This document shows, one piece after another, positions 30,795-48,100 of a DNA stretch of 64,000 nt. Position numbers and translations under genes: made by a program. Positions within the stretch are counted from its first letter, which is position 1, and every line of letters begins with the position of its first letter. The notes under the pieces were generated by a model. That model was not told where the DNA came from, searched no databases, and was given only the letters and a program-made list of their open reading frames with translations. The DNA is from Candidatus Poribacteria bacterium (GTDB lineage: Bacteria > Poribacteria > WGA-4E > WGA-3G), in NCBI GenBank assembly GCA_965208245.1, contig OZ242325.1, positions 1,395,699 to 1,459,698 of the forward strand. Direction: 5' to 3'.

Positions 30795-30848
30795 TCAGAC
30801 ATTTCACTGTGGAATTTTTTGCAGTTAATGATGTGTGAGGCATGAGTA

Positions 30849-31871
30849 TTGCTATCTTATGTACTCCAAAGATTCCTCTCCATAAGTTTATCCCTTCTTG
30901 GTGTGTCTCTTCTTGTGTTTTTTATGGTACATCTGATCCCGGGTGATGTTGCGCTGACAATTGCAGGTGAACGTGCAACCCAAGAGGTACTTGAACAAAT
31001 CCGGGAAGATATAGGTCTGGATAAACCGTTGTATCATCAATACGGAATCTTCCTGTGGGACCTTATTCATCTTGATTTAGGACGTTCCTTTAAGACGAAG
31101 CAGCCTGTGATTGAAGAAATCAAAGACTACTTTCCTGCTACTGCTGAGTTAACGCTTGCTGCAATGATGTTTTCTATTTTTTTCGGGATAGCAGCTGGGA
31201 TAATCGCAGCGGTTTATCGTGGGAAGTTTTTGGACTATTTCTCCATGTCGACTTCACTTGCTGGTATCTCAATGCCGATATTCTGGCTCGGATTGATGCT
31301 GATACTCCTATTTGCTCATTACCTGAATGTTCTGCCAGTGTCAGGACGCTTAGATACTGAGTTAAGCTTAGATGTAGAAACTCTTACCGGCTTCATGCTG
31401 ATTGACACCTTGCTTCAAGGCAATTTTACAGCATTTAAGGATGCAATTACTCATCTGATATTACCTGCGATTACATTAGGAACTATCCCGTTAGCGATCA
31501 TCGCGAGGATGACTCGTTCAAGTCTGCTTGAGGTGTTAAATCAACCTTACATTACGACTGCTTATGCAAAAGGTTTGTCTCGGTGGAGAGTCATTATTAA
31601 GCATGCGCTGAAGAATAGTATGGTGCCTGTATTGACAATAATTGGCTTGGAATTCGGTTATCTTATGGGTGGTGCAATTTTGACGGAGCATATTTTCTCA
31701 TGGCCTGGTCTCGGTTCATGGCTACGCGTCTCAGTTGAAGCACGTGATGTGCGCGCTGTTCAAGGTGGTGTCTTATTCGTTTCTGCACTATTCATGTTTG
31801 TCAATTTAATTGTTGATCTGTTATATGCCTACTTTGATCCGCGCATAAAAGTAGAGGACGATACGCTATGA
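30849..31871 (+). CDS. ABC peptide/nickel transporter permease, DppB/OppB-like
   Basis: N-terminus MLSYVLQRFL...VHLIPGD is typical of DppB. An EAA-like loop is present. TTG start as called. Confidence 0.8.
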   Translation: MLSYVLQRFLSISLSLLGVSLLVFFMVHLIPGDVALTIAGERATQEVLEQIREDIGLDKPLYHQYGIFLWDLIHLDLGRSFKTKQPVIEEIKDYFPATAELTLAAMMFSIFFGIAAGIIAAVYRGKFLDYFSMSTSLAGISMPIFWLGLMLILLFAHYLNVLPVSGRLDTELSLDVETLTGFMLIDTLLQGNFTAFKDAITHLILPAITLGTIPLAIIARMTRSSLLEVLNQPYITTAYAKGLSRWRVIIKHALKNSMVPVLTIIGLEFGYLMGGAILTEHIFSWPGLGSWLRVSVEARDVRAVQGGVLFVSALFMFVNLIVDLLYAYFDPRIKVEDDTL

Positions 31872-32722
31872 ACACTAATGTTACTGCAACAAGTCAACAA
31901 CACATCATGCCTAAACTGATGCGGCATCCGTCAGCTGTGATTGGTGCATCTATCATACTCTTTTTTGTGACTATCGCTATCTTTGCCCCTCTATTAGCAA
32001 AGCACGAACCAATGACTGCCAAAGTAGAAAATCGACTTAAAGGTTGGTCATACCAACATTTACTAGGCACCGATGGCACGGGTCGGGACGTATATAGCAG
32101 GATTCTGTACGGTGCGCGAATCTCGTTGAAAGTCGGTTTAATCGCAATAACATTTTCACTCGGTTTGGGAACACTTTCCGGGGCATTTGCTGGCTATTAT
32201 GGTGGTTGGTTAGACAATGTGATTATGCGGGTTATGGATATGCTGCTTGCAATGCCGAGTATTCTGCTTGCAATGGTCATTGTTACGATTTTGGGACAGA
32301 GTCTGACGAATGCGATTATCGCTGTTTCTATCGTTTATATTCCGCAGTATGCAAGGATATTACGCGCTTCTGTTTTGAAAGTCCGGGAGTTAGACTATGT
32401 TACCGCAGCGAAGGTCATCGGGGCAAGCGACATCCGAATTCTGGTAACAACCGTCCTTCCGAATTGTCTTGCTCCGTTGATTGTTCAAGCAACTCTAGGA
32501 ATAGGCGCAGCAATTTTGGATGCCGCTGGACTCAGCTTCCTCGGACTCGGGGCAGAAATAGGTGTACCAGAATGGGGGGCAATGCTCAATGAGAATACAA
32601 AGTTTATTCGCAGAGCACCTTTATCCGTATTTGCCCCCGGCATGGCGATCTTTCTTATCGTGTTAGGGTTTAATCTTCTCGGTGATGCACTACGTGACGC
32701 ACTTGACCCACAAATAGATTGA
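31868..32722 (+). CDS. ABC peptide/nickel transporter permease, DppC/OppC-like
   Basis: Overlaps the dppB-like stop by 4 bp. BPD_transp_1 pattern and a C-terminal GDALRDALDP motif. Confidence 0.8.
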   Translation: MNTNVTATSQQHIMPKLMRHPSAVIGASIILFFVTIAIFAPLLAKHEPMTAKVENRLKGWSYQHLLGTDGTGRDVYSRILYGARISLKVGLIAITFSLGLGTLSGAFAGYYGGWLDNVIMRVMDMLLAMPSILLAMVIVTILGQSLTNAIIAVSIVYIPQYARILRASVLKVRELDYVTAAKVIGASDIRILVTTVLPNCLAPLIVQATLGIGAAILDAAGLSFLGLGAEIGVPEWGAMLNENTKFIRRAPLSVFAPGMAIFLIVLGFNLLGDALRDALDPQID

Positions 32723-32731
32723 GGTCCACTT

Positions 32732-33762
32732 ATGTTTACACCTGATTTCAATTATACACACAACATCGTTAGGAATTTGATGATCATTGAAGGGTCAAAA
32801 GAGGTTATTGAAAACTCGCCTATTCTTCCAGTTTGGCAATCACGCCTTCAAAAAGAGGCATTGATACGACTCGAATTGAGGGAACACAGCTTACTTTAGA
32901 GCAGGTTCGAGACCTCATTGATGAAAAACCTATTGCCGCAAAAAAACGGGACATTCAAGAGGTACGCAATTATTTAAAAGTTGCCGCCTTCATTGATGAT
33001 GTTTACGGAAATCCTGACATGCTACTTGACCTCCGCACGATTCGACATATACATTTCCTGATACTTGATGGGATAGAAGGGGGTTATGAACCGGGTGAAT
33101 TTCGCAAAATACAGAATTATGTTGTAAATAGCAGAACAAATCAAGTAATTTACACACCTCCACCTGCTTCTTATGTCCCAATACTGATGCTGGAATTGGT
33201 AGATTGGTTACGCTCTGACGATGCTAATCAACTATCACCCTTGCTTAAATCGGGGATTGTACACTACCAATTTGTTACCATTCATCCATTTCTTGATGGC
33301 AATGGCAGAACTGCACGGGCACTTGCAAATCTTATTCTCTATCATTCTGGCTATGACATTAAAAAACTCTTTTCACTTGAAGAATATTACGATTTGAATC
33401 CTGCGGATTATTATGAGGCGTTACAGAGTGTCCGATCAACCGCTAAACTCACAACGTGGTTGGAATATTTTACTACTGGCATTGCTGAGGAAATGCAGAA
33501 GGTTAAAGAAATGGTACTGACTCATAGTAGAGATAGAGCCTTACGCAATAGAATAGGTCAGGTAGCACTTACAGAACGGCAGCTAGTGATTCTCAACTAT
33601 GTCGAAAAACATGGACAGATTACTAACCGAGAATTGCAGCAACAAGTTAATCTTTCACATTCCTCTGCCCACAAGGAATTATTGACACTAGTGGAAAGTG
33701 GTTTGTTAATCAGAAAAGGAAAAGCACGAGGAACTCATTATGTATTGGTTGATGATTTCTAA
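32732..33762 (+). pseudogene. Fic/Doc-family protein, apparently frameshifted in an A5 run near 32860
   Basis: Fic motif HPFLDGNGRTARAL in the long frame. The conserved N-terminal Fic region (…LPVWQSRLQKEA) reads in a different frame starting at the ATG at 32732. Frames switch between QKEA and TTRIEGT around caaaaagagg. Confidence 0.55.
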
Positions 33763-33910
33763 CAAATGTGGTTGATGATTACGCTATGAACCTAAACTAT
33801 ATAAAGGTTTACAGCAGTTGATGATTCAGTTGATGTTTTTCAAGGTCTTTGGTTGTTGATACTGCAATAAAACCATACTATGACAGGGTTTAGACAGGTT
33901 GATGATAGGA
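33704..33910. repeat. Five or more dispersed direct copies of GGTTGATGAT within about 200 bp, upstream of the FGGY kinase gene
   Basis: Copies near 33704, 33769, 33818 (doublet), 33857 (variant), and 33898. Iteron-like spacing of about 50-80 bp. Confidence 0.5.
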
Positions 33911-33990
33911 TTTCGTAAAAATAAAGGGAAAATGGGGTGGAAAATACCTAAAACTGATTGCTGATTATTGAAAGAAAAAGGAGAAAACAG

Positions 33991-35496
33991 ATGAGTCTAC
34001 TGGGGATTGATGTTGGAACAACGGGTTGTAAAGTCATTTCATTCCGCGAGGACGGAGAGATATTAGCACAAGCATATCGCGAATATCCATTGATACATCC
34101 ACAACCCGGATGGTCAGAATTAGATGGGAATGTTGTTTGGGAAAAAGTTGCTGATGGAATACGTGAAGTCGCATCACAAACAGATGCCGATCCAATTGAA
34201 GCCATAAGTGTCGCTTCACAAGGTGAGGCAGTGACACCTGTATGGGGAAATTGTGATGTGCTCACAAATGCAATCACTACATTTGACTCCCGCACATCAG
34301 GAATCTGTGATGAGATCCTAAAGAATATCACACCATTAGAGGTGATGCAAATTACTGGAATGCCACCGAGTGACATTCATACGCTTGCAAAACTTGTATG
34401 GATAAAACGCAATCAACCTGATCTATACAAAGAGGTATGGAAGTTCTTCGGTTTTGAAGACTTCATTAACTTCAGACTTGGTGTTCACCCCGTTGTTGAT
34501 TACTCACTTGCATCACGAACAATGGCGTTTGACATAATCAACAAAACGTGGTCAGATAGGATGTTTGATCTTGCCGATATTGACGCATCACTTTTACCAG
34601 ATACAGTCCCATCAGGAACTATCATCGGTGAGATTGGTAAAAAGGTATCTACCGAGATGGGATTACCTAGGGGTGTTGTCGTTGTTGCTGGGGGGCATGA
34701 CCAACCATGTGGTGCATTGGGAGCAGGTATAATACGTGGGGGAGAAGTTATGGATGCTACGGGTACTGTTGAATGTATTGCCCCCGCCTTCGGAGAACCG
34801 GTCATCAACCAACAGATGATAGATGGGAACTTTTCTTGCTATCCTCATGTTGTTGAAGGACTCTATGTAACATTAGGATTTGTCTCAAGTGGTGGCGCTG
34901 TCCTTAGATGGTTCAGAGACACATTTGCAGAAACTGAAATTGCCCGATCAGCTGCAGAAAATCGTGATGTATATGATATCCTGCTTGAGAATATACCCGA
35001 TTCACCCGGAACGGCGATGTTACTTCCACATTTTACAGGTTCAGGAACACCACATCTTGATCTGGAGTCGAAGGGGGCAATTGTTGGACTCACACTTTCT
35101 ACGTCAAAAGGTGAACTTGTGAAAGCAATTCTTGAGGGTATAAGTTACGAGATTAAACAGAATCTCACAATGTTACAAGATGCTGGTGTAGAAATAAATG
35201 AAGTGCGAGCAATAGGGGGTGGCGCGAAATCTGACAAATGGCTACAACTAAAAGCAGATATGTTTGGTAAAAAAGTCATTGCATTAGACATCTCTGAGGG
35301 TGTTTGCCTCGGCACGGCAATTTTAGCTGGCACAGCGATTGGTAAATATAGTTGCATTGAGGAAGCAGTAGAACTGTTAGTAAAACCGAAAGAAACATAT
35401 TATCCTCGTGAAAAGATAGCACAAGAATACGATGAAAAACTTAAAGTGTATGAACAGATCTATCCCGCTTTGAATTCTATAAACAAGCAAATCTAA
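33991..35496 (+). CDS. FGGY-family carbohydrate kinase (xylulokinase-like)
   Basis: Start MSLLGIDVGTTGCKV with a GGAG RBS. FGGY N- and C-terminal domains (GGGAKSDKWLQLKADMFG). Confidence 0.85.
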   Translation: MSLLGIDVGTTGCKVISFREDGEILAQAYREYPLIHPQPGWSELDGNVVWEKVADGIREVASQTDADPIEAISVASQGEAVTPVWGNCDVLTNAITTFDSRTSGICDEILKNITPLEVMQITGMPPSDIHTLAKLVWIKRNQPDLYKEVWKFFGFEDFINFRLGVHPVVDYSLASRTMAFDIINKTWSDRMFDLADIDASLLPDTVPSGTIIGEIGKKVSTEMGLPRGVVVVAGGHDQPCGALGAGIIRGGEVMDATGTVECIAPAFGEPVINQQMIDGNFSCYPHVVEGLYVTLGFVSSGGAVLRWFRDTFAETEIARSAAENRDVYDILLENIPDSPGTAMLLPHFTGSGTPHLDLESKGAIVGLTLSTSKGELVKAILEGISYEIKQNLTMLQDAGVEINEVRAIGGGAKSDKWLQLKADMFGKKVIALDISEGVCLGTAILAGTAIGKYSCIEEAVELLVKPKETYYPREKIAQEYDEKLKVYEQIYPALNSINKQI

Positions 35497-35524
35497 TTGC
35501 ACAGATCCCAACGTTTATAAACAT

Positions 35525-35646
35525 GACTTACGCAGTTTCTCTTAAAGTCCCTCTGATAAGGGGAACTTAGGGGGGTAAATCACTAAAATATCATTGAAAT
35601 AACGACTTTTTAACCCTCTTATCAAGAGGGAATGCGTAAGTCATGA
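35525..35646. repeat. Repeat family C copy 1 (about 120 bp MITE-like element; inverted relative to the copy at 54911-55019)
   Basis: About 85% identity to the reverse complement of 54911-55019. Internal near-palindromes CCCTCTGATAAGGGG / CCCTCTTATCAAGAGGG. Confidence 0.8.
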
Positions 35647-35776
35647 TAAACTAAACATGAACGGCCTTGACACATCAACTTAATTTAAGGTATACTAAAA
35701 GCAAAAGAGAACCTTAAACAACCTTAACAAGAAAGTCAGAACAGTACCACAAGAATCTATCAGGAGTGATAGACGT

Positions 35777-37327
35777 ATGGCAAAATACAAAAACATACAT
35801 CTTTTTTTGCTGATTCTTTTAGGTTGTGTATGCGTTGAATTGAACCTTCCTGCAGATGATGCTACAAATTCTGAATTAACGCAGAATGCCTTAGTATATG
35901 TCATTGACATCCGTACCGAAATCGGAGGCGGTGTCAGCACTTATGTCAAGAAGGGCATTCAGAAAGCAGAACAGGCTAATGCAGACATCATTGTTTTTGA
36001 TATAGACACCCCAGGAGGTAAGGTTGATTCCGCTGTAAAGATAATACGGTCAATCCAAGTTACGGAAGTACCAACTATAGCATTCATTAACAGACAAGCG
36101 ATTTCTGCTGGAGCGATGATTTCAGCAGCTTGTGATCAGATCGTAATGACTTCTGGGGCAACAATAGGAGACTCTGCACCTGTTGACACACAAGGAAATG
36201 AAGCACCAGAGAAAATTGTCACTTACATCCGTACGACTATCCGGTCAACCGCAGAACGCCAAAATAGAAATCCAGACATTGCCGAGGCGATGGTGGACAA
36301 AAGGTTATATCTTGTACGTTTAGAGAATGGAGATATAATTAAACTACGACCTATTGAGTTTATAAATGAACAGGATGCAGGCACACAGATGAAAATCCTA
36401 TGTGATGAAGGTGAGCTGCTAACACTGTCAACTATTCAGGCTCTTGATTACGGATTCGTTAATACGCAAGCAGAAAACCTATCTGAATTACTTGCACAAT
36501 ACCGAATCGTTGAAATAGAGCATGACTATAGTGAAAATGTCATAACGGCATTGCCACAGAAGGATATGTTAAGTCAACAAGAGGAGCGTGGAAAAAAACG
36601 GGTATCCCTCATTAAGACGTTGGCGTATGCTAAAGTTGAAAGGTTTGAAGTAACAGTTGCAGATCGTACAGTCTTCTTTCTCACTAGTCCATATATCAGT
36701 GCATTACTGCTTTCGTTAGGAGGACTCGGACTACTCGTTGAAATACGAACCCCGGGTTTTGGAATACCCGGTTTTCTTGGATTACTCTTTATAGGTCTGT
36801 TCTTCGGGGGACACATGCTCAACCAAATATCATTGTGGGTTGTCATGTTATTGTTTGTATTAGGATTAGCATTAATTGTTGTTGAGGTGTTTGTTATTCC
36901 AGGATTCGGTATTGCAGGGATTATAGGTCTATTGTTGATGCTGGGAAGTGTGTTTTACACCTTTTTTAGCGAGACCGGTGACTTTTCTGTTGCCCTCTTG
37001 TGGTTATCTATCTCAATCATTTTAACCTCTGCGTTGGCAATATTTGCAACTATCTTCCTGCCAAAGTCATCTCCATTTCAACGATTCGCGCTCTCCACCG
37101 TGATGAGTGCTGATCAAGGATACCATTCAGCTGGTATAGATGACTTTCAGAGTTTTGTTGGGAAAACAGGTGTTGCGTTAACACCGCTACGACCCGCAGG
37201 AACTGCACGCATAGAAAATAAAAGGTTAGATGTTGTCACAGTAGGGAACTTCATTGACGAGAATACCCCGATTAGAGTATTAGAGGTAGAAGGATCTAAG
37301 ATCTCTGTTGAAACGCTTGAGGCGTAA
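35777..37327 (+). CDS. NfeD-family membrane-bound serine protease (long form: ClpP-like domain + TM region + OB-fold C-terminus)
   Basis: Signal peptide, ClpP/SppA-like N-domain, central multi-TM block, C-terminal OB-like domain (GKTGVALTPLRPAGTARIENKRLDVVTV). Confidence 0.75.
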   Translation: MAKYKNIHLFLLILLGCVCVELNLPADDATNSELTQNALVYVIDIRTEIGGGVSTYVKKGIQKAEQANADIIVFDIDTPGGKVDSAVKIIRSIQVTEVPTIAFINRQAISAGAMISAACDQIVMTSGATIGDSAPVDTQGNEAPEKIVTYIRTTIRSTAERQNRNPDIAEAMVDKRLYLVRLENGDIIKLRPIEFINEQDAGTQMKILCDEGELLTLSTIQALDYGFVNTQAENLSELLAQYRIVEIEHDYSENVITALPQKDMLSQQEERGKKRVSLIKTLAYAKVERFEVTVADRTVFFLTSPYISALLLSLGGLGLLVEIRTPGFGIPGFLGLLFIGLFFGGHMLNQISLWVVMLLFVLGLALIVVEVFVIPGFGIAGIIGLLLMLGSVFYTFFSETGDFSVALLWLSISIILTSALAIFATIFLPKSSPFQRFALSTVMSADQGYHSAGIDDFQSFVGKTGVALTPLRPAGTARIENKRLDVVTVGNFIDENTPIRVLEVEGSKISVETLEA

Positions 37328-37379
37328 CGCGAAATTTGACTGTACATATTATGACTGTACATATTTGGAGGCGACCTAT

Positions 37380-37859
37380 ATGTGGGTACCAACTATTCTA
37401 ATTGCACTCGGCATACTATTGGTGTTTATTGAGATTCTACTTTTACCAGGTTTTGGAGCTGCGGGAATACCTGGTATCATCATCTTCTGTGTTGGCATCG
37501 GGATGATCTGGACAAATGAAGGCGTAAAAACGGCTCTTATTTTCACAAGTATCGCACTAATTTTTGTTATACCGATAGCAATTATCCTGTTATCTCTTAT
37601 TAGAGAAACGCCGATAGGAAAGACATTTATTCTGGATGCAGCAGAAAGTAGTGATAAAGGTTATCACGCCGCTCCAAGAGAATTAACAGCATTTGTCGGT
37701 AAATCTGGGAAGACAATCACCCCACTACGTCCAGCGGGAGTAGCACTCATAAATGGACAACGTGTTGACATCGTAACACAAGGCGAGTTCGTAGAACCAG
37801 AAACTGAGATTGAAGTCATACAAGTTGAAGGTAGTAGAGTTGTTGTCCGAAGTCTATAA
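37380..37859 (+). CDS. NfeD-like short form (TM + OB-fold; YuaF/YqfB-like)
   Basis: Start MWVPTILIALG with a GGAGG RBS. The C-terminus GKSGKTITPLRPAGVALINGQRVDIVTQGEF parallels the long NfeD C-terminus. Confidence 0.7.
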   Translation: MWVPTILIALGILLVFIEILLLPGFGAAGIPGIIIFCVGIGMIWTNEGVKTALIFTSIALIFVIPIAIILLSLIRETPIGKTFILDAAESSDKGYHAAPRELTAFVGKSGKTITPLRPAGVALINGQRVDIVTQGEFVEPETEIEVIQVEGSRVVVRSL

Positions 37860-37920
37860 TCAGTGATCTGGAAAACTAATCTGAAAAATCAATTATACTT
37901 GAACAAGAAGGAGATACAGT

Positions 37921-38841
37921 ATGGAAACACTTAATCCTATTATACCTATAGTTGCAGTCGTTGCACTTATAGTAGTCTTTATGTTTTTCTGGTTCGTACC
38001 AGTAGGACTATGGATTGCAGCAGTTGCAGCAGGGGTACCACTACGCATCTTTGAACTTATCGGGATGCGGCTGAGAAGGGTCAATCCGAATGTTATTGTC
38101 AGAGCTCTTATCAGTAGTCACAAAGCGGGATTGAAAGTTGCTACGTCAGACTTGGAAGCACATTATCTGGCGGGTGGCAATGTACTTAACGTTGTCAGCG
38201 CGTTAATTGCTGCTGATAAGGCAAGGAACATCAGTCTTGATTTTACGCAAGCTGCAGCGATTGATTTAGCTGGTAGAGATGTATTTGAAGCAGTTCAAAT
38301 CAGCGTTAATCCACGGGTTATTACAACACCACGCATCAGTGCCCTTGCCCTTGATGGCGTCGAACTTATTACGACTGTCAGAATAACTGTGCGAACCTTT
38401 ATCAACCGACTCGTCGGCGGAGCGGGCGAAGAAACAATCGTCGCTCGTGTAGGTGAAGGTATTATCAGTGCAATCGGCGCATCTGATACCTACGAAGATG
38501 TTCTTGAAAACCCTGATATCATCACGAAAACAGTGCTTGATAGAGGACTTGATGCTGGTACTGCATTTGAAATCTTGTCTATTGATATTGCTGATGTAAA
38601 TGTTGGGAAAAATATTGGGGCAGAACTCCAGGCAGAACAAGCGGAAGCCGACCTCGTGGTAGCGCAAGCAAAAGCAGAGGAACGACGCGCGCTTGCAGTC
38701 GCAAGAAAACAGGAGATGACAGCAGGTGTACAAGAGAAAAGGGCAACAGTTGTAGAAGCAGAAGCCACTGTACCCAGAGCACTTGCAGGGGCATTTCGTG
38801 AAGGAAACTTTGAGATTTCAAATATAAGAGAAGGAGCATAG
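37921..38841 (+). CDS. floA: Flotillin-like protein FloA (UPF0365/YqfA family)
   Basis: Near-diagnostic FloA blocks: [26 protein letters not shown](F/L)[15 protein letters not shown](V/I)[27 protein letters not shown]. Confidence 0.85.
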
Positions 38842-38842
38842 A

Positions 38843-39874
38843 ATGGAAACAGCAATAATCGCTATAATAGCAGTATGTGTATTACTGTTCTTAATAGTCA
38901 TTGCATGGTTAGTTCCCCTCGGTTTATGGATTACTGCTATTGCTGCTGGCGTTAAGGTTGGAATTTTTGACCTTGTCGCAATGCGTTTACGACGGGTACC
39001 ACCAGCTGGCATTGTTGAACCACAAATCAACGCAACAAAAGCCGGACTAACATTATCACTAGACGACCTTGAAGCACACTACCTCGCAGGTGGACGTGTC
39101 GGAAGCGTAGTGGCTGCTCTCATTGCAGCAGACAAAGCTAACATTCAGTTGGACTTTGCACAAGCTGCCGCAATTGACTTAGCTGGTAGAGATGTATTAC
39201 AAGCAGTTCAGTTGAGTGTTACACCAGAGATTATTGATATACCAAGTAATGAAGACGCAGCAAATGGCATTACTGCAGTCGCCAGAGATGGTATCCAACT
39301 CATCGTTAAAGCACGTGTCACTGTCAGGGCAAATATTGACAGACTTGTTGGTGGTGCGACAGAAGATACTATTCGGGCAAGGGTGGGTGAAGGTATTATC
39401 ACAACAATAGGTTCATCCGCAAATCACAAACAGGTGTTAGAGAATCCAGTAAGGATATCCGAAACTGTCCTTGAGAAAGGACTTGAAGCTGGAACAGCTT
39501 TTGAGATTCTCTCCATAGATATTGCTGATATAAATGTCGGTGAAAATATCGGTGCAAAATTACAGACGGATCAAGCTCAAGCTGAACTCAAGATTGCACG
39601 CGCAAAAGCTGAAGAACGAAGAGCAAAAGCCGAGGCAGAAGAGGAAGAAAACAAAGCTCTCGTAGAAGAAATGACCGTCAAACTGATTGAAGCAGAAGCC
39701 GAAATCCCGCTTTCTATATCAGACGCTTTCAATTCAAAAAACATGAGCGTTATGGACTATTATACACTACGGAATATACTCGCTGACACAGAGATGCGAC
39801 AATCCATTGCAGCACCTGGCGGTTCAGATGAAGGTGACACAACACGGTCAGCACATTCCCTAGGCCTATCTTAA
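38843..39874 (+). CDS. floA: Second FloA paralog (tandem), with an extended E/K-rich C-terminus
   Basis: The same FloA blocks as above (about 65% identical by eye). Separated from the first copy by 1 bp. Confidence 0.85.
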
Positions 39875-39895
39875 ACCGATCTGAAGGAGATACGA

Positions 39896-40369
39896 ATGGA
39901 ATTCAATCTTGAGGCATTAATACCGATTATACTTGCAATACTTTTCATCGTTTTTGGTGGTTCACGCAGACGCAAACCAACACAACGTCCTGCACAAGAT
40001 CCTCAGGCAGCTGAATCAAACACTTTTGAGGTAGATACCGCTAACGATAGCGATGTTGTGTTTCCACCCTTCATGGATAATTTTGAGAGCGTTCCAACAG
40101 AGATGGAAGTATCACAACGTAATCAGACGATTGACGAAGATATGAACGCTCAAATGGTGGCAGAAAAATCTGAACCTGTCCCTGAACCTACACCACAGAG
40201 GAAACCTATAGAGACACCTCCTATTCCAGTAGATTCACCAACGCGTTTGCCATCAAGACCTTTGCCTATAACTTCTCTAATCGAACTGAATCCAGATACA
40301 TTTCGACAAGGTATTATCTTGGCTGAAATATTGGGACAACCAAAGACTTTCGGCAATCGGAGACGTTAA
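39896..40369 (+). CDS. Small single-pass membrane protein, paralog 1 of an uncharacterised pair
   Basis: N-terminal TM helix and an acidic low-complexity middle. Conserved C-terminus PPIPVDSPTRLPSRPLPITSLIELNPDTFRQGIILAEILGQPK shared with the next ORF. Confidence 0.6.
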   Translation: MEFNLEALIPIILAILFIVFGGSRRRKPTQRPAQDPQAAESNTFEVDTANDSDVVFPPFMDNFESVPTEMEVSQRNQTIDEDMNAQMVAEKSEPVPEPTPQRKPIETPPIPVDSPTRLPSRPLPITSLIELNPDTFRQGIILAEILGQPKTFGNRRR

Positions 40370-40836
40370 TGGATTTAATTGTGTGGACACGTATTATTGT
40401 ACCACTCACTATCCTAATATTTGTCATATATGTTGTCATATCAGCGAATCGATTGGATAAGCAGATTAGACAACAGAAAGTTGATGCAAAGTATCAGGTC
40501 AAGACTCCTATTGTTTCCACAAATACTGATCATGATGTCAATGATAATTTTGATGGGTTATATCCTTTGCCTGAGGAACTACAGAAGACAGATGAAAGGT
40601 CAGAAGTACCTGAACTACAAACGGTTACTGAGAAGATAAATAAGGAAGTCGAAACAGCCACTGGTGTTGACGAGACATCAGGTACTACACCGCCAATACC
40701 AGTGGATTCTACATCAAAACTGCTTTCAAGACCGATTCCTATTACATCATTATTAGAATTGTCTCATCAAACACTCCTTGACGGTATAATCTTGTCAGAA
40801 ATCCTTGGCAGACCCAAATGTTTACGCGGACGCTAA
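40369..40836 (+). CDS. Small single-pass membrane protein, paralog 2 (translationally coupled to paralog 1 via TAATG overlap)
   Basis: N-terminal TM helix. C-terminus PPIPVDSTSKLLSRPIPITSLLELSHQTLLDGIILSEILGRPK. Confidence 0.6.
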   Translation: MDLIVWTRIIVPLTILIFVIYVVISANRLDKQIRQQKVDAKYQVKTPIVSTNTDHDVNDNFDGLYPLPEELQKTDERSEVPELQTVTEKINKEVETATGVDETSGTTPPIPVDSTSKLLSRPIPITSLLELSHQTLLDGIILSEILGRPKCLRGR

Positions 40837-40847
40837 TGAATCGAGCA

Positions 40848-40966
40848 GGACTTACACAAAGGATTGGATTTAACAACGCATTGAACGAATATCGCAAAGA
40901 ACGGGCAATGAATGGTTTCCTTACTACCAACACTCTAACTTCTAATAATGAACAAAATGCGTAAGT
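40848..40966. repeat. Possible diverged MITE relic sharing only the terminal inverted repeats of repeat family C (caggacttacac ... gcgtaagtcttg)
   Basis: The 12-bp ends match the family C terminus and its complement. The internal sequence is unrelated. Confidence 0.3.
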
Positions 40967-40993
40967 CTTGTTCTTATAGCTAAGGTTGAATCA

Positions 40994-43159
40994 ATGCGTC
41001 ACAGATATCAGCACTTTCTAATTCTATTTCTATCCCTCATACTTTGTCCACTCAGTGCTAATCAACCTGAAAAGAATTCGAAATTAGATTTGTCTACTGA
41101 AATGGAGATTCCGCCTTATGCCAGACACCTCAAAGGGATAAAGGTATGTCTTGATCCTGGACATGGGGGGCAAGAACATATCCCAGATTTCAAACAGGGT
41201 CCTACAGGTCTCCGAGAAGCGGAAATAAACCTGAAAGTTGCCAAGTATCTTCAAAGTCTCTTAGAAAAAGTAGGCACTACTGTCATTATGACGCGTGATG
41301 ATGATTCTTATGTAAGTTTAGTTGACAGAAGCGAAATTGCTAACAATAATCAAGCAGACTTCTTCATATCAATACACCACAACGGAATTAATGATAATCC
41401 TGAAGTAAACTACACCTCTACCTGGTATCATGGTGATGCAGATGACTCCCGACCGAGTCTTGACATTGCTCGTTACGTTCAACAAGGTGTCTCGGACGCG
41501 TTACGTCTCCCAAACTCACCATCCACTGGACTCTATTCAGACAAGTTAATAGTTGCATCAGGTTTTGGTGTATTGCGCATGACAAAATGTCCCGCTATCG
41601 TATGTGAAGCCTCCTTCTACACAAACCCTGAAGAGGAAGCCAGATTAAAGAACGATCAATATCTGAAGAGAGAAGCTTACGGCTATTTCGTCGGTATAGC
41701 ACGATATGTTGAATCTGGATTACCGAAGGGTGTTCTAATCACACCAGAAAATGAATCTATAATTCAGACAAAGGTGCCAACAATTAAAATAAAAATCATG
41801 GATGGTTTACATGAGCGCGGTGCGTGGATGTTAAAACGGCAGCAGATCTTTACTAATTCCTTATGTGTGAAAATCAATGGATCGGCGTATCCTTTTCAAT
41901 ATGATCGTGACACCGATATAATCACGGTTGAAGTTAAGGAACCTTTAGCGAATGGACTTCATTTTGTTCAAACAAACATGGTGAATTACTATGGAAACCA
42001 CAGTTTGCCTCAACCGCAGCAATTTAAAATAGCACCACCTGCAACCAAAATTGAACTGAATGCATGGACAATGAACATGCCATACATTGGAAATGGATAT
42101 GTAGGAATTGTAGCTAATGCTCTTGATGCTGATGGTTTACCCATCGCTGATGATGAAATCGTCAGAGCAGAAGCATCTGTCGGAACACTTGCGTCTTCTG
42201 AAAGCACTTCAAAGGATGGAAAGGCATATTTTTACCTTAATGCACTTGACCATCTAAGTGAAACTGTTGTGGAAATCTCTTACGGTAAGGCACGGAATTC
42301 ACTAAAAATACATTTCACCGACATTCCAAACGGAGTCATTCAAGGATACGTTACCAATGCTGCTTCTAGTGATCCGATTTCACAGGTCAAATTGCACGCT
42401 TCACCGATGTTATCTGCTGAATCTGATCCTAAAGGACACTACTTTTTGAAAACAGATCCCGATTTGGATTATCCATATCAAACAACACTCAACTTCTCAA
42501 AACAAGGTTTCTATACTTATGAACAACATACCACCATAGAACAGAATAGGTCTACAATTGTCAATGTGGAACTTTACCCCATTGCTGGCAGTGCTTTTGA
42601 TAATACAACTATAGTCATTGACACAAAGACAGATACGCAGAAGACTCAAAAACTGATTTCTTCATTGAAAGACATGTTAGAAGTTGCCGGTTCAAAGGTA
42701 TTCAATATCCATACACCTGGGCAAACGATGTCCATTGAAGATCGGATTAAAAAAGTAAACAGTATTAATCAGGAAGGATACTATCTACAAATAAACCACA
42801 CGGCAAAGATTGAAGGAGAACCTATTGTCATAGCGAAACACAATTGTGGCAACCGGGAGACCGAATTTATGCAAAAGCGTATCCTTGAACAGTTCAACAG
42901 TAGACTCTATAAAACAACGGTTGAGACCATCCAAGATAGAGAAACACCAATAATCCAACAGACAAACAAATTAGCAATGACTCTTGAAATCCGTTCTATT
43001 GGTAATAAAGACTTTACATCAGAGCAGGAAGCATCTGCTATATTCTTAGGTATGTGGCAATTTCTAAAGGATGTTATAGAAATTGAGATGAAAAAAATAG
43101 AGAGATTTATGGAATATTACAACGGAGTTCAAGGGAATAAGGATGCAGATCACTTCTAA
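40994..43159 (+). CDS. N-acetylmuramoyl-L-alanine amidase (Amidase_3, AmiC-like) with a long C-terminal multi-domain extension
   Basis: Signal peptide. Amidase_3 catalytic region (GHGG..., ADFFISIHHNG, CEASFYTN). 721 aa in total. Confidence 0.8.
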   Translation: MRHRYQHFLILFLSLILCPLSANQPEKNSKLDLSTEMEIPPYARHLKGIKVCLDPGHGGQEHIPDFKQGPTGLREAEINLKVAKYLQSLLEKVGTTVIMTRDDDSYVSLVDRSEIANNNQADFFISIHHNGINDNPEVNYTSTWYHGDADDSRPSLDIARYVQQGVSDALRLPNSPSTGLYSDKLIVASGFGVLRMTKCPAIVCEASFYTNPEEEARLKNDQYLKREAYGYFVGIARYVESGLPKGVLITPENESIIQTKVPTIKIKIMDGLHERGAWMLKRQQIFTNSLCVKINGSAYPFQYDRDTDIITVEVKEPLANGLHFVQTNMVNYYGNHSLPQPQQFKIAPPATKIELNAWTMNMPYIGNGYVGIVANALDADGLPIADDEIVRAEASVGTLASSESTSKDGKAYFYLNALDHLSETVVEISYGKARNSLKIHFTDIPNGVIQGYVTNAASSDPISQVKLHASPMLSAESDPKGHYFLKTDPDLDYPYQTTLNFSKQGFYTYEQHTTIEQNRSTIVNVELYPIAGSAFDNTTIVIDTKTDTQKTQKLISSLKDMLEVAGSKVFNIHTPGQTMSIEDRIKKVNSINQEGYYLQINHTAKIEGEPIVIAKHNCGNRETEFMQKRILEQFNSRLYKTTVETIQDRETPIIQQTNKLAMTLEIRSIGNKDFTSEQEASAIFLGMWQFLKDVIEIEMKKIERFMEYYNGVQGNKDADHF

Positions 43160-44144
43160 GATCACTAAACTACAACTTAAACGTCCTTTCAAAATTTCGC
43201 GTCGTAAAACGGACCCTTATAGAAAGACGATCTTTGTTGAAATTGATGGGGGTATTGGTGAAGCATCTCCAGCAAAGTTCTATGGTGAAACTGTTGAAAC
43301 AGTTGAAACTGCACTGGGATTCATCTCTTCAGAATTGAACGAGGACCTTGATCAGAATCACGAGGTTATGTCAAAGGTAGCATCAATTTTAGAGGGTAAT
43401 TATGCTGCGAAATCTGCAATAGATATGGCACTCAATGACAGACTGGGTAAAAAACTCGGTGTTCCCCTATACAAACTCTTGGGACTCAATCCACTAAACA
43501 CACCACATACCTCGTTCACAATAGGACTCGATGAACCAACTGTTATGGCAGAGAAAGCATTAGCAGCTGATATGTGTCCAATACTGAAAGTCAAACTTGG
43601 AACAGCACGGGATATTGAGATAATGGAAACACTTCGCACTGTAACTGACAAACCGATATATGTTGACGCAAATACCGCGTGGTCACCAAACGAGGCAGTA
43701 CAGAAAATACATCAACTTAAAGAATATGGCGTAGAATTAATCGAACAACCGACAGAACCTGATGATATTGCAGGGTTAAAGTTCGTTCGCGAGAATTCTG
43801 AACTACCGATTATTGCAGACGAAAGTGTGAAACGTGCAAGTGATATACCGAGTTTATCAGGAGCAGTAGATGGCATAAACCTCAAATTAGTCAAATGTGG
43901 AGGACTATTAGAAGCGGTGAGAATGATACACGTTGCGCGCGCACACGGATTACGCGTCATGATTGGCTGTATGATAGAGAGTTCTCTTGGTATCACTGCA
44001 GCTGCCCATCTATCTCCACTCGTTGACTATGCAGATTTAGATGGAAATTTGTTGATTAAGAATGATCCATTTTCTGGTGTAACACTTAACAACGGGAAGT
44101 TAATGCTACCTGATAGACCAGGAATTGGTGCCGTCAAAACTTAA
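43143..44144 (+). CDS. Dipeptide (L-Ala-D/L-Glu) epimerase, enolase superfamily MLE subgroup
   Basis: KVKLG K-x-K motif; metal ligands in DANTAWS, E (LIEQP), D (IADES). 333 aa. Overlaps the amidase by 17 bp. Confidence 0.8.
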   Translation: MQITSKITKLQLKRPFKISRRKTDPYRKTIFVEIDGGIGEASPAKFYGETVETVETALGFISSELNEDLDQNHEVMSKVASILEGNYAAKSAIDMALNDRLGKKLGVPLYKLLGLNPLNTPHTSFTIGLDEPTVMAEKALAADMCPILKVKLGTARDIEIMETLRTVTDKPIYVDANTAWSPNEAVQKIHQLKEYGVELIEQPTEPDDIAGLKFVRENSELPIIADESVKRASDIPSLSGAVDGINLKLVKCGGLLEAVRMIHVARAHGLRVMIGCMIESSLGITAAAHLSPLVDYADLDGNLLIKNDPFSGVTLNNGKLMLPDRPGIGAVKT

Positions 44145-44172
44145 AAGCAAAAATGCAGAATAGGAGAGATAA

Positions 44173-44886
44173 ATGTCAAACCCTAACAGAAACGTCCTAA
44201 TCATAGGTGGTACAGGCTTCTTAGGAAGTGCCGTGACGAAAACATTTATATCATTGGGTGACACGGTCGCAGCCACATATCTGTTTGACGATGAAGTGGA
44301 AAGATTTAAGCAACACAATCCGGATCTTAGTGATGTCGTTACCTTTCTTTATGCCAATGTCACTGAGGAATCAGTAGTGCAGAAGACCATAGATGCTTGT
44401 ATTGATAAGTTCGGTCATCTTGATATATTGGTAAATATCGTTGGTGGGTTTGTTGGTGGTATTGACACAGTTGAACTTGAGGAAGATAAGTGGGATTTCA
44501 TGATGAACCTTAACCTCAAATCAGTGTTTTTATGTTGCAAAACAGTAATTCCGCACATGAAAGCACAGGGTTATGGCAAAATCGTAAACGTCTCTGCGCG
44601 TGCAGGACTAAAGGGTGAAGCGGGACTGAGTGCTTATTGTGTCTCTAAAGGAGGCGTGCGGACGTTAACAGAGTCATTAGCCGCGGAGGTGATGGATTCG
44701 GGTATCAACGTCAACTGCATAATGCCGAGTATAATGGATACCCCAATGAACCGAGATGCAATGCCTGACGAAGACTATACGCGTTGGGTAAAAACTGATG
44801 ATGTCGCAAAGGTAATCTGTTTTCTGACTTCTGATGAAGCATCTATTATCAATGGTGCTGCGATACCTGTTTATGGTAGGATGTAA
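44173..44886 (+). CDS. SDR-family oxidoreductase
   Basis: GGTGFLG Rossmann motif, NVSARAG, and YCVSK catalytic motif. Confidence 0.85.
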   Translation: MSNPNRNVLIIGGTGFLGSAVTKTFISLGDTVAATYLFDDEVERFKQHNPDLSDVVTFLYANVTEESVVQKTIDACIDKFGHLDILVNIVGGFVGGIDTVELEEDKWDFMMNLNLKSVFLCCKTVIPHMKAQGYGKIVNVSARAGLKGEAGLSAYCVSKGGVRTLTESLAAEVMDSGINVNCIMPSIMDTPMNRDAMPDEDYTRWVKTDDVAKVICFLTSDEASIINGAAIPVYGRM

Positions 44887-44920
44887 TTTATGGTAGGATG
44901 TAATTTATGGTAGGATGTAA
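44870..44920. repeat. Three perfect tandem copies of the 17-mer TTTATGGTAGGATGTAA spanning the SDR stop codon
   Basis: Seen directly. The first copy encodes the last residues YGRM and the stop of the SDR. Confidence 0.9.
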
Positions 44921-45211
44921 AAAGACATTATTCCTACATAATTGTGGTGAATAGATACTTGCAGTATATGTAACTCCTGGAAAATCGACTGGTAGAGCAT
45001 CGCGCACAACGGGGGCAAGTTGCCATGCATGCCGAGCATCAGTTACGGACGGTTCTCCGGCACAGTCTTGGAATTATGCCATTAAACTGTTAATTTGTTA
45101 AAGTTATAGTGGGTTGTTGGTTTTTGCTTGTATTTCTTCGCCATTTCTGATAAAATTGCCTCTAAAAGATTTTACAAGATAATTCAATCCGCATATATAA
45201 GGATATAACAG

Positions 45212-46492
45212 ATGGCACTTCCAAAAATGGCACGGGTCAGACAACATTTTGATGCACCTACGCTTCCAGACCTTAGATTTACAATTCGTGAGGAGTTAGA
45301 TCGGATTGGCGTTGCGTCAATTGTCCGTTCTGGTGAGACGGTAGCGATTACTGCCGGCAGTCGTGGTGTTGCCAATATTGCAACTGCAGTTAAAACAACT
45401 GTGGATTATCTCAAAGAAATTGGTGCAAAACCTTTTGTCGTACCAGCTATGGGGAGCCATGGCGGTGCGACAGCGGAAGGACAACGGAACGTATTAGAAC
45501 ATTACGGTATCACAGAGACCACTGTGGGGGCACCTGTGAAAGCAACAATGGAGGTGATGGAACTCGGTAAAATTTCGCACGGACGTGATGATACTGTACC
45601 CGTTTTCATGGATCGCTATGCTGCAGCGGCTGACCATGTTGTTCTTCTCAATCGTATCAAAGCACATACAGATTTCAACGGTTCCATTGAAAGTGGTCTT
45701 GTAAAGATGATGGTAATTGGATTAGGGAAACAGCAAGGAGCAAACTACTATCACCGAGCGTTCTTTCAGTACGGTTTCGAAAATGTTATCATGGCAGTTG
45801 GACGTTTTATCCTTGATACAGACAAAATCGCTTTCGGGTTAGGACTGATTGAAAACGCACATGAACAGACGGCTAGAGCAGTGGCGATGCCTGCTGCACG
45901 TCTTATACAAACCGAACGACAACTCTTAGTGGAAGCAAAATCGCTCATGGGGCAATTGCCATTTGCAGAATTAGACCTATTGATCGTGGATTTTATTGGA
46001 AAAAACATCAGTGGAACAGGTCTGGACTCAAATGTTATCGGTAGAATGATGCAGAATTTTGAACCAGAACCCGTGAAACCGCAAATCCTTCGTATTTTTG
46101 TCCGTGACCTTACAGAAGAGAGTGACGGGAATGCAACAGGTATCGGTCTCGCTGATTTCACAACGACACGACTCGTTGATAAGATTGACCGACATGCAAC
46201 CTATATGAACGGTATCACTGCACTCGGTCCACAGAAATCAAAAATCCCGTTCTACTACGATACTGATAGAGAGGCAATAGAAGTTGCACTTGAAACCATC
46301 GGTCTGACAAAACCAGAAAACTCACGTGTGATACGCATAGAAAGCACCTTGAGATTAACAGATCTTGATATCTCAGAAGTATTGCTGAAAGATGTACAAC
46401 TGCATTCAAACTTGGAGGTAGTAGGTGATGTCCAACCTTTCACATTTGATGAAAAGGACAACTTACTACCGTTTGCTTCGGAGGAACACTAA
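45212..46492 (+). CDS. LarA-like (nickel-pincer lactate racemase family, DUF2088 N-domain) protein
   Basis: The segment ETVAITAGSRG...PFVVPAMGSHGGATAEGQ...LEHYGI parallels the LarA N-domain (VAIVVSDITR...IVFALGTHR...). 426 aa. Function assigned by family resemblance only. Confidence 0.5.
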   Translation: MALPKMARVRQHFDAPTLPDLRFTIREELDRIGVASIVRSGETVAITAGSRGVANIATAVKTTVDYLKEIGAKPFVVPAMGSHGGATAEGQRNVLEHYGITETTVGAPVKATMEVMELGKISHGRDDTVPVFMDRYAAAADHVVLLNRIKAHTDFNGSIESGLVKMMVIGLGKQQGANYYHRAFFQYGFENVIMAVGRFILDTDKIAFGLGLIENAHEQTARAVAMPAARLIQTERQLLVEAKSLMGQLPFAELDLLIVDFIGKNISGTGLDSNVIGRMMQNFEPEPVKPQILRIFVRDLTEESDGNATGIGLADFTTTRLVDKIDRHATYMNGITALGPQKSKIPFYYDTDREAIEVALETIGLTKPENSRVIRIESTLRLTDLDISEVLLKDVQLHSNLEVVGDVQPFTFDEKDNLLPFASEEH

Positions 46493-47083
46493 GTGAAACG
46501 ATTGATAGTCGGTATCACAGGTGCAAGTGCAGTTGTTTACGGTGTCCGGCTTCTTGAAGTTCTCGCGAAACAAGAAGATATGGAGATTCATCTAACTATC
46601 TCCTCATCCGGTGCACGTGCTTTGCGGGAGGAACTGAAGATTGAGTTAGACATTAATGATTTCAAATTGCAATCCCTTATCGATATTGATACAAAGCAGA
46701 TCATTTACCACCATGAATCTGACATAGGTGCGTCAATTGCAAGCGGGTCATTCCGCACCGAAGGGATGATTGTTGTGCCGTGTAGTATGGGAACTGTCGC
46801 TGCAATTGCAGCAGGTATTTCACGCAATTTGATCCAACGTGCAGCGGATGTCTGTATCAAAGAACGACGTAAATTAGTCATCGTCCCGCGTGAAACCCCG
46901 CTAAGTTCAATACATCTGGAGAACATGCTGAAGTTGTCACGCGTTGGTGTGTGCATGTTACCTGCAATGCCAGGGTTCTACCATTTCCCGAAATCAGTGG
47001 ACGATCAGATCAACTTCGTTGTGACAAAGATACTGGATCAGTTCAGCATAGATTCTGGTTTGACACAGCGGTGGAAAGAATAG
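46493..47083 (+). CDS. ubiX: Flavin prenyltransferase UbiX (prenylated-FMN synthase)
   Basis: N-terminus MKRLIVGITGASAVVYGVRLLEVL with flavoprotein-family conservation throughout. 196 aa. Confidence 0.88.
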   Translation: MKRLIVGITGASAVVYGVRLLEVLAKQEDMEIHLTISSSGARALREELKIELDINDFKLQSLIDIDTKQIIYHHESDIGASIASGSFRTEGMIVVPCSMGTVAAIAAGISRNLIQRAADVCIKERRKLVIVPRETPLSSIHLENMLKLSRVGVCMLPAMPGFYHFPKSVDDQINFVVTKILDQFSIDSGLTQRWKE

Positions 47084-47122
47084 TTACGGATACCATTCCT
47101 AGTTAATAATACCTTATATTTC

Positions 47123-47217
47123 TGTAGGTCGGGTAGAGGAATGCCATTATAATATTAACTGGCGACATGTATTGATTGGACACATCATATCGGGTTTCGT
47201 ACCTCTACCCGACCTAT
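47123..47217. repeat. Repeat family B copy (short variant; arms TGTAGGTCGGGTAGAGG ... CCTCTACCCGACCTAT)
   Basis: Inverted arms as in the 55774 copy. The interior shares ttataatattaac with the insert in repeat A copy 1. Confidence 0.75.
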
Positions 47218-47251
47218 GAAAGAATGTGACAAGAACAATAGAATTAGTCTG

Positions 47252-48100
47252 ATGCGAAAACTCAAAATTATCCTTGAGATGATAAAGTTTGAACACACGG
47301 TGTTCGCGCTGCCGTTTGCAATTATGAGTGCGTTTATTGCATCGGATGGGCTGCCACCACTACCGAAGTTGGGTTGGATTCTCGTGGCGATGGTTGGCGC
47401 GCGGAGTTGTGCAATGGCGTTCAATCGACTCGCTGATGCAGAAATTGATAGCAAGAACCCAAGGACTTCAACCCGTGCTATTCCAGCAGGTCTAATCACG
47501 AAAGGATCCGTTTGGGTTTTTACGCTCGTTTCTGCTGGCTTGTTGGTATGTGCAGCATGGCGTTTAAATCCGCTTGCATTTGCGTTATCACCTGTCGCAC
47601 TTGCTGTCATAATGGGGTATTCGTTCACGAAACGGTTCACAGCACTTTCACATTTGTGGTTAGGACTTGCGCTCTCTATATCACCTATTGGTGCATGGAT
47701 CGCCATCACTGGCAGATTTGATTGGACACCGATAGTTCTCTGCTGTGTTGTGTTGCTATGGACAGCAGGTTTTGACATTATATATGCATGCCAAGATGTG
47801 AACTTTGACAGAAGACATGGACTGCATTCCATTCCTGCGCGGATAGGTATACGTTGGGCTCTATGGATTTCTGCTGCGTTGCATGTCGTTGCAGTTATCC
47901 TTCTATTTATCATTCCGCTCCTTGCGGAATTAGGACTATTTTATTTTATCGGTGTAGGGATTGTTGTTCTGATATTTATCTATGAGCATACCATTGTGAA
48001 ACCGAATGACCTTTCACGCGTCAATTTGGCATTTTTCACCCTTAACGGTATGATTAGTCTGGTCTTAATGGCACTTTCTATCACTGATATTCTATTGTAA
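47252..48100 (+). CDS. UbiA-family aromatic prenyltransferase (4-hydroxybenzoate polyprenyltransferase-like / MqnP-like)
   Basis: Start MRKLKIILEMIKFEHTVFALPFA. The Asp-rich motif region NRLADAEIDSKNPRT and a second DxxxD-like block are present. Eight or nine TM helices. Confidence 0.8.
   Translation: MRKLKIILEMIKFEHTVFALPFAIMSAFIASDGLPPLPKLGWILVAMVGARSCAMAFNRLADAEIDSKNPRTSTRAIPAGLITKGSVWVFTLVSAGLLVCAAWRLNPLAFALSPVALAVIMGYSFTKRFTALSHLWLGLALSISPIGAWIAITGRFDWTPIVLCCVVLLWTAGFDIIYACQDVNFDRRHGLHSIPARIGIRWALWISAALHVVAVILLFIIPLLAELGLFYFIGVGIVVLIFIYEHTIVKPNDLSRVNLAFFTLNGMISLVLMALSITDILL

Follow-up and report, generated by a model that had tools for sequence, protein, structure and literature searches.

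Tandem YqfB-family membrane proteins behind duplicated floA genes in a Candidatus Poribacteria genome and their putative part in the flotillin assembly

Introduction

What are two small, overlapping genes of a Candidatus Poribacteria bacterium doing directly behind a pair of flotillin genes? The genes, called yqfB1 and yqfB2 here, lie at positions 39896-40836 of a stretch of 64,000 nucleotides (hereafter the window; contig OZ242325.1 of assembly GCA_965208245.1, positions 1,395,699 to 1,459,698 of the forward strand). A preliminary description of this DNA, made from the letters alone, took them for small paralogous membrane proteins with a C-terminal motif of no recognised family, and regarded them as the part of the window most like an undescribed functional unit, perhaps accompanying the flotillin genes (floA). 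From our analysis, the pair very probably adds a new member, present in duplicate, to a family, YqfB, which is named yet functionally uncharacterised.

In Bacillus subtilis, the sigmaW-dependent operon yqeZ-yqfA-yqfB has yqfB in third place, after yqeZ for an NfeD-type serine protease and yqfA for FloA, and confers resistance to sublancin (PMC3498285; PMC8144471). The unit cannot be called undescribed, since this operon is established in B. subtilis and the Pfam family PF27722 is named YqfB. However, the latter of the two papers lists yqfB in an operon table only (PMC8144471), and the searchable literature yielded no paper on the function of YqfB; the other papers there that mention both yqfB and flotillin are, by their titles, transcriptome or mode-of-action studies.

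Assignment of the gene pair to the YqfB family

The two open reading frames (ORFs), of 157 and 155 aa, are present as previously described and overlap as TAATG, the stop codon of yqfB1 (TAA, 40367-40369) and the start codon of yqfB2 (ATG, 40369-40371) having one base in common. Their products are paralogs, as had been proposed, with 54/156 identities (35%, E 3e-22) by BLASTP. The GC content per codon position (0.57/0.43/0.29 and 0.50/0.36/0.30 for the pair) is similar to that of floA2, the gene just upstream (0.61/0.42/0.30). A homolog search returned 75 full-length relatives at E <= 0.01, of which the source-named ones are all Candidatus Poribacteria. When 1.84 billion cluster representatives were searched with a profile of 61 sequences, 258 of them matched at E <= 1e-3. 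The genes are real, and with these numbers of homologs and cluster representatives the gene pair is far beyond chance. Nearly all of the 258 representatives are 110-210 aa long and share one plan, namely an N-terminal transmembrane (TM) segment, a charged low-complexity middle and the C-terminal motif. A further profile search with an alignment of 133 sequences gave Poribacteria-type members only among the 120 matches listed. One 907-aa representative, P0102, has six separate stretches that match the YqfB profile, the best pairing profile positions 110-149 with residues 434-474. Either a repeat protein or an artefact of gene prediction could account for this.

The C-terminal motif, contrary to the preliminary description, very probably belongs to a recognised family. 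Many close homologs, including P0002 (87% identical to YqfB1), P0003, P0007 and P0072, carry a precomputed annotation as PF27722, which is named YqfB in the context records of the homologs. The family is therefore named, though not functionally characterised. The Pfam release used to scan the window proteins predates PF27722, and both copies gave 0 families in that scan, while the NCBIfam scan of both proteins yielded sub-threshold noise only (an HpsJ-like match in the N-terminal region that scored 16 bits, the cutoff being 140). The name YqfB is also used in E. coli, for an unrelated ASCH amidohydrolase; as the older Pfam release gave no match for either window protein, to ASCH or otherwise, we infer that the Pfam name refers to the Bacillus protein. 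Positional orthologs in Siminovitchia and Niallia (Bacillaceae), Planococcus and Paenibacillus match a hidden Markov model (HMM) of the C-terminal motif with E values from 4e-10 to 7e-4. These Bacillota genes are named 'hypothetical protein' at NCBI, and in UniRef likewise for Planococcus and Paenibacillus. Through the PF27722-annotated homologs and the position of the genes, we consider it very likely that the pair are tandem YqfB-family paralogs linked to FloA.

How much of the motif is shared depends on the breadth of the comparison. The preliminary description gave a conserved C-terminal motif of 40 aa; the block common to both copies is about 50 aa long (residues 108-157), but across phyla it shrinks to a universal core of about 16 residues, G-I-I-L-[AS]-E-I-L-G-x-P-K-x-L-R, which AlphaFold2 models as a short helix. 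With the sequences aligned at the motif, the core shared across phyla reads (R)Q-G-I-I-L-[AS]-E-I-L-G-[KRP]-P-[KR]-x-L-R-R-R, and among 195 sequences the Glu is kept in 191, the Leu in 192 and the Pro in 190. The longer block PPIPVDSP... and the patch PPFMENFE are conserved in Poribacteria-type members only. The full architecture, with the N-terminal TM segment, the charged linker and the GIIxxEILGxPK helix followed by a basic tail, was found in the window proteins and in relatives from at least six phyla.

Position of yqfB genes relative to floA across genomes

We collected floA loci by scanning with a FloA alignment, taking one genome per GTDB species, which gave 80 loci from many phyla, and searched all their six-frame ORFs with a 23-column HMM of the C-terminal motif. 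All 50 matches at E < 1, in 87 loci and the 18-kb window stretch 30001-48000, occupy the same-strand ORF directly after floA, and no match was found outside this slot in the six-frame ORFs of the same set. The ORF in the slot begins about 0-250 nt past the floA stop; in the window, the end of floA2 (39874) is followed on the same strand by the start of yqfB1 (39896). Flotillin work usually treats nfeD-floA as two genes, yet a third gene, with the near-invariant C-terminal helix, follows floA in most of the phyla sampled outside the Bacteroidota (36 of 47 loci at E < 1e-2, 40 at E < 1). Positives include all nine Poribacteria loci (9/9), Paenibacillus, Planococcus, Siminovitchia, Niallia, several Clostridia, Gemmatimonadota, Latescibacterota, Hydrogenedentota and Melioribacteraceae.

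The same picture emerged when the search started from the motif. Scanning metagenomes with the YqfB alignment yielded 18 loci, and floA was directly upstream in 13/13 of those that could be assessed; in the remaining five the motif gene lies within 231 nt of a contig end. The earlier proposal of a flotillin-associated accessory is therefore supported from both directions, since floA is directly upstream on the same strand in 40/40 positive loci and in 13/13 motif-first loci.

A few non-Bacteroidota floA loci (L036, L034, L055, L059, L062 and L084) have no YqfB HMM match. In one of them (L036, Gemmatimonadetes), floA is followed by an ORF of 240 aa with an N-terminal TM segment and a degenerate ending, ...LIRALVASEVFSPPPGL, which is indicative that the motif-based count of YqfB is probably an underestimate.

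Architecture and predicted structure

Each protein has a single hydrophobic window, with a 19-residue hydropathy (KD19) score of 2.36 at residues 3-21 in YqfB1 and 2.53 at residues 9-27 in YqfB2. The flanks of the TM segment are acidic or neutral before it and strongly basic after it (RRRK in YqfB1; R..K..R..K in YqfB2), which by the positive-inside rule points to an N-out/C-in topology; we therefore predict both to be single-pass membrane proteins with the N-terminus outside and the C-terminus inside. The middle region is acidic, with a net charge of -12 in YqfB1 and -9 in YqfB2 and 20-21% D/E, and disorder-promoting residues make up 70-72% of it in both copies. AlphaFold2, run on an alignment of 61 sequences, gave YqfB1 helices at residues 5-21 and 133-146 only, the remainder having a predicted confidence (pLDDT) below 70 and the mean pLDDT being 63. 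Hydropathy and charge thus agree with the earlier reading of one N-terminal TM helix and an acidic, disordered middle in each copy, as does the AlphaFold2 model for YqfB1. In the aromatic-acidic patch PPFMDNFE of YqfB1, residues P57, P58, F59 and F63 have a conservation of 90% or more, and AlphaFold2 places a short helical turn at residues 60-62.

The C-terminal helix has hydrophobic residues around its whole circumference in both copies and is not amphipathic, its hydrophobic moment per residue at 100 degrees being 0.60 in YqfB1 and 0.14 in YqfB2. This low moment rules out an amphipathic membrane-targeting helix of the MinD/FtsA type. A second TM segment was also ruled out, as the 19-residue scan of YqfB1 and YqfB2 gave no hydropathy window above 1.6 outside the N-terminus, and so was a C-terminal sorting signal of the LPXTG or PEP-CTERM type, as no hydrophobic segment of TM length precedes the basic tail. 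The likeness to LPXTG, PEP-CTERM, MinD and FtsA is superficial and consists in a conserved motif, a hydrophobic stretch and a basic tail at the extreme C-terminus; however, unlike in LPXTG and PEP-CTERM signals, the hydrophobic stretch of YqfB is about 9 residues long, holds an invariant Glu and is not a TM segment, and unlike in the MinD and FtsA helices its hydrophobic moment is low.

Proposed role and alternative explanations

To account for these features, we propose that the first few residues of YqfB would lie outside the cell and the remainder in the cytoplasm, in the same compartment as the SPFH/coiled-coil body of FloA; this body and the OB-fold of NfeD are both cytoplasmic (PMC11222466). 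The cytoplasmic part would form a disordered, acidic tether about 100 residues long, which leads to the short hydrophobic helix (G-I-I-L-[AS]-E-I-L-G-x-P-K), almost invariant in sequence, and then to the basic tail. The helix would dock on the FloA oligomer, so that the flotillin assembly would have in YqfB an accessory subunit tethered to the membrane, and the duplicated copy would retain the docking helix with an altered TM helix and linker. The near-invariant Glu (191/195), placed in a hydrophobic helix between a G and G-x-P, fits a specific protein contact better than a lipid contact. FloA is the most plausible partner because it is always the upstream gene, because it is the best-conserved component (median identity to the window protein in non-Poribacteria loci of 65% for the FloA core vs 41-42% for the NfeD OB domains) and because YqfB co-occurs with either type of NfeD. 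On balance, we lean towards the explanation as a whole, with tandem YqfB paralogs as tethered accessories of a FloA assembly, while docking of the C-terminal helix on FloA, read from sequence features, is offered tentatively.

Three observations weigh against this proposal. The YqfB motif was found in 0/33 Bacteroidota floA loci, which means that YqfB is dispensable for FloA in general. Only two FloA columns separate YqfB-bearing from YqfB-less lineages, and they reveal no clustered site. As to the family assignment, P0001, an entry identical to YqfB1, has no Pfam hit on record.

The main alternative is that the C-terminal helix binds the cytoplasmic OB-fold of NfeD instead of FloA, which would make YqfB an adaptor or regulator of NfeD. 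OB-folds often bind extended hydrophobic peptides, Pfam calls PF01957 a partner-binding domain, and most YqfB-positive loci have nfeD genes ahead of floA. However, the OB domains, at the median identity given above, are much less conserved than the near-invariance of the YqfB motif would imply; moreover, Bacteroidota keep the short NfeD without YqfB, and one locus (L057) has a YqfB match and no NfeD detectable by BLAST. We regard NfeD as an unlikely partner. Still more improbable, in our estimation, is that the helix and the polybasic tail fold back on the inner leaflet as an in-plane anchor, so that YqfB acts on lipids near FloA. Lipid-binding helices tolerate substitutions, and near-invariance at the level of single residues, including the central Glu and G-x-P, is atypical of them; the helix is also not amphipathic, with the moments reported above, even though it is hydrophobic and followed by three to five Arg/Lys, and even though the literature (e.g., PMC7360373, by its title) ties flotillins to membrane fluidity.

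Could the ClpP-like protease domain of NfeD1b, a product of the same operon, instead have YqfB as its substrate or decoy? The hydrophobic C-terminal segment of the archaeal stomatin PH1511 is reportedly cleaved by the NfeD protease PH1510, and over the 80 loci the presence of YqfB tracks that of NfeD1b (odds ratio 15.8, p 1e-7). Within the non-Bacteroidota, however, the correlation is gone (odds ratio 1.3, p 0.70), so the association reflects phylogeny, and eight YqfB-positive loci have the short NfeD only or none detected. The signal-peptide-like N-terminus of NfeD1b and its roughly five TM segments, as read from the sequence, would moreover put the protease outside and the tail of YqfB inside, and we judge such a relationship very improbable. 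Hardly to be expected is that the pair serves the Amidase_3 protein and the epimerase encoded behind it, e.g., as anchors or regulators of the amidase, with FloA a mere neighbour. The order yqfB-amidase-epimerase is constant in every Poribacteria-type locus that reaches that far, and no terminator-like site lies between 40836 and 40994, but both enzymes are absent downstream of yqfB in all non-Poribacteria YqfB loci sampled, whereas floA is always directly upstream. The adjacency to the amidase, which the preliminary description had pointed out, is consequently without general meaning.

Returning to docking on FloA, we would go one step further, with considerable doubt, and suggest that YqfB may be a generally overlooked third subunit of FloA-NfeD assemblies outside the Bacteroidota, whose C-terminal helix would insert in a conserved site of the FloA oligomer and so modulate how the oligomer assembles or which clients reach it. 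The Poribacteria pair may then be two differently anchored versions for a heteromeric assembly of two FloAs. The FloA tails after ADTxMR have a mean net charge of -1.0 in YqfB-positive loci (E < 1e-2) and of +0.6 in the others (L008-L087), a difference confounded by phylogeny, and Bacteroidota FloA tails often terminate in Lys runs. One could speculate that the basic tail of YqfB gives in trans what the Bacteroidota FloA has in cis, with the same caution for a charge comparison confounded by phylogeny.

Comparison with known systems

The window proteins resemble the YqfB family, whose namesake is that of B. subtilis, in being small (130-200 aa) and encoded on the same strand directly after floA, and they share with it the N-terminal TM segment, the charged disordered middle and the C-terminal GIIxxEILGxPKxxR motif. 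They differ in that the window has two tandem copies, one of which belongs to a type 2 specific to Poribacteria and has another TM helix, in that the pair follows two floA and two nfeD genes, and in the extra conserved patches PPFMENFE and PPVPVDSP of the Poribacteria copies, which were not seen in Bacillota. Control by sigmaW and the sublancin phenotype are known for Bacillus only.

In gene order the cluster is like the NfeD-SPFH5/FloA (YqfA) operons, where an NfeD1b-type gene comes first and an SPFH5 gene after it (Hinderhofer et al., 2009, PMC2636767); the same paper mentions an adjacent 'gene of unknown function' in the Thermus SPFH5 operon. A recent mechanistic paper on flotillin describes a two-gene nfeD-floA operon (PMC11222466), unlike the window, which has a conserved and duplicated third gene and carries nfeD and floA twice each. 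PH1511 likewise has a short hydrophobic stretch near its C-terminus and an operon with a ClpP-like NfeD. In the window, however, this stretch is on a separate small protein and not on the SPFH protein, it is predicted to lie across the membrane from the protease domain, and YqfB has no lineage-independent association with the protease-type NfeD.

The practical consequence is a correction of annotation, as the products of two Poribacteria genes listed as 'hypothetical' can be assigned to the YqfB family of flotillin-operon proteins. The comparison also gives a sharper definition of the invariant helix and of the phyletic pattern of YqfB, which in B. subtilis is an easy experimental target.

Duplication in Poribacteria

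Most Poribacteria loci have the order nfeD1b, short nfeD, floA1, floA2 and one yqfB, and tandem yqfB pairs were found in the window and in two other loci (L008 and L088). A neighbour-joining tree of 149 Poribacteria-type members groups the type-2 sequences (N-terminus MD.IVWTRII.PL.ILIFVIYV.ISANR) in one clade (8/8), which is indicative of one duplication within one Poribacteria subclade. The sequences suggest that the second copy kept the C-terminal helix and changed its TM helix and linker.

The FloA1/FloA2 pair with a long and a short NfeD occurs in all Poribacteria loci, and a FloA pair also in two Hydrogenedentota loci (L019 and L043). FloA1 stops soon past the coiled-coil region, without the C-terminal tail kept by FloA2 and by single-copy FloAs.

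Operon neighbourhood in the window

The features of the cluster are collected in Table 1. Pfam matches of the neighbours bear out the placement of the pair given earlier, after tandem floA genes and before a peptidoglycan amidase, in an NfeD-NfeD-FloA-FloA cluster, with nfeD1b and the short NfeD (35777-37859) directly upstream of the FloA genes (37921-39874). Homologs of floA2 bear the source names FloA or YqfA.

Table 1. Features of the nfeD-floA-yqfB cluster and its surroundings (window coordinates)
Feature	Position	Strand	Description and basis
Promoter-like TTGACA-18-TATACT	35667..35696	+	11/12; upstream of nfeD1b; consensus match only
nfeD1b	35777..37327	+	ClpP-like protease + membrane domain + C-terminal OB-fold, YqeZ-type; PF25145 9.4e-50, PF24961 1.3e-23, PF01957 1.5e-12
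short NfeD	37308..37859	+	Membrane domain + OB-fold; PF01957 1.3e-11, PF24961 4.6e-07
floA1	37921..38841	+	306 aa; PF12127 1.5e-134, NF010186 7e-137
floA2	38843..39874	+	Full-length FloA (YqfA/SPFH5), just upstream of yqfB1; PF12127 5.7e-143, NF010186 6.6e-145
Shine-Dalgarno-like AAGGAG	39884-39889	+	6 nt before yqfB1 ATG; read from sequence
yqfB1	39896..40369	+	157 aa, ATG start; YqfB-family protein; ORF, paralogy and homolog search
yqfB1 TM helix, residues 5-21	39908..39958	+	Hydropathy, flank charges; AlphaFold2 helix 5-21, pLDDT 78-89
yqfB1 aromatic-acidic patch PPFMDNFE, residues 57-64	40064..40087	+	Conserved among Poribacteria-type homologs
yqfB1 conserved C-terminal block, residues 108-157	40217..40366	+	PPIPVDSP...TFRQGIILAEILGQPK...RRR; conservation
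yqfB1 C-terminal helix, residues 133-146	40292-40333	+	AlphaFold2, pLDDT 82-84
GGAG within yqfB1 end	40359-40362	+	6 nt before yqfB2 ATG; read from sequence
yqfB2	40369..40836	+	155 aa, ATG start; YqfB paralog, 'type 2' clade
yqfB2 TM, about residues 9-27	40393-40449	+	Hydropathy
yqfB2 C-terminal block	40690-40833	+	
Amidase_3 gene + MR_MLE (dipeptide-epimerase-like) gene	40994..44144	+	Pfam; Amidase_3 3.9e-43; outside the conserved unit

The GGAG before yqfB2, together with the TAATG overlap, suggests that yqfB2 is probably translationally coupled to yqfB1. From the tight spacing, the single strand and the lack of any terminator-like site inside the cluster, the pair is probably co-transcribed with nfeD and floA. 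The promoter-like site upstream of nfeD1b is a possible operon promoter; a promoter and terminator scan of the region gave no enrichment over shuffled sequences, with 22 promoter-like sites vs a shuffle mean of 25.6.

The ORF of the short NfeD, as called, has a TTG start at 37308 and overlaps nfeD1b by 20 nt. Translation more probably begins at the ATG near 37380 (MWVPTIL...), since the ortholog in locus L005 is 160 aa long. The N-terminus of nfeD1b (35777-35870, MAKYKNIHLFLLILLGCVCV...) is signal-peptide-like with a lipobox-like LLGC, and the ClpP-like domain would accordingly lie outside the cytoplasmic membrane.

Behind yqfB, a block at 40994-44886, also present in L005-L014 and L088-L092, common to all Poribacteria-type loci and seen in no other phylum sampled, encodes an Amidase_3 protein of 721 aa with a CarboxypepD_reg-like middle domain, the MR_MLE epimerase-like protein and a short-chain dehydrogenase/reductase (SDR). 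In this lineage the operon may thus have been extended by genes for peptidoglycan recycling. Neither tRNA genes nor Rfam families were found in the window. Upstream of the cluster, an ORF of 309 aa (32833-33762) contains HPFLDGNGRTAR, which fits the Fic motif HPFx[DE]GNGR, and its C-terminal part appears winged-helix-like by eye.

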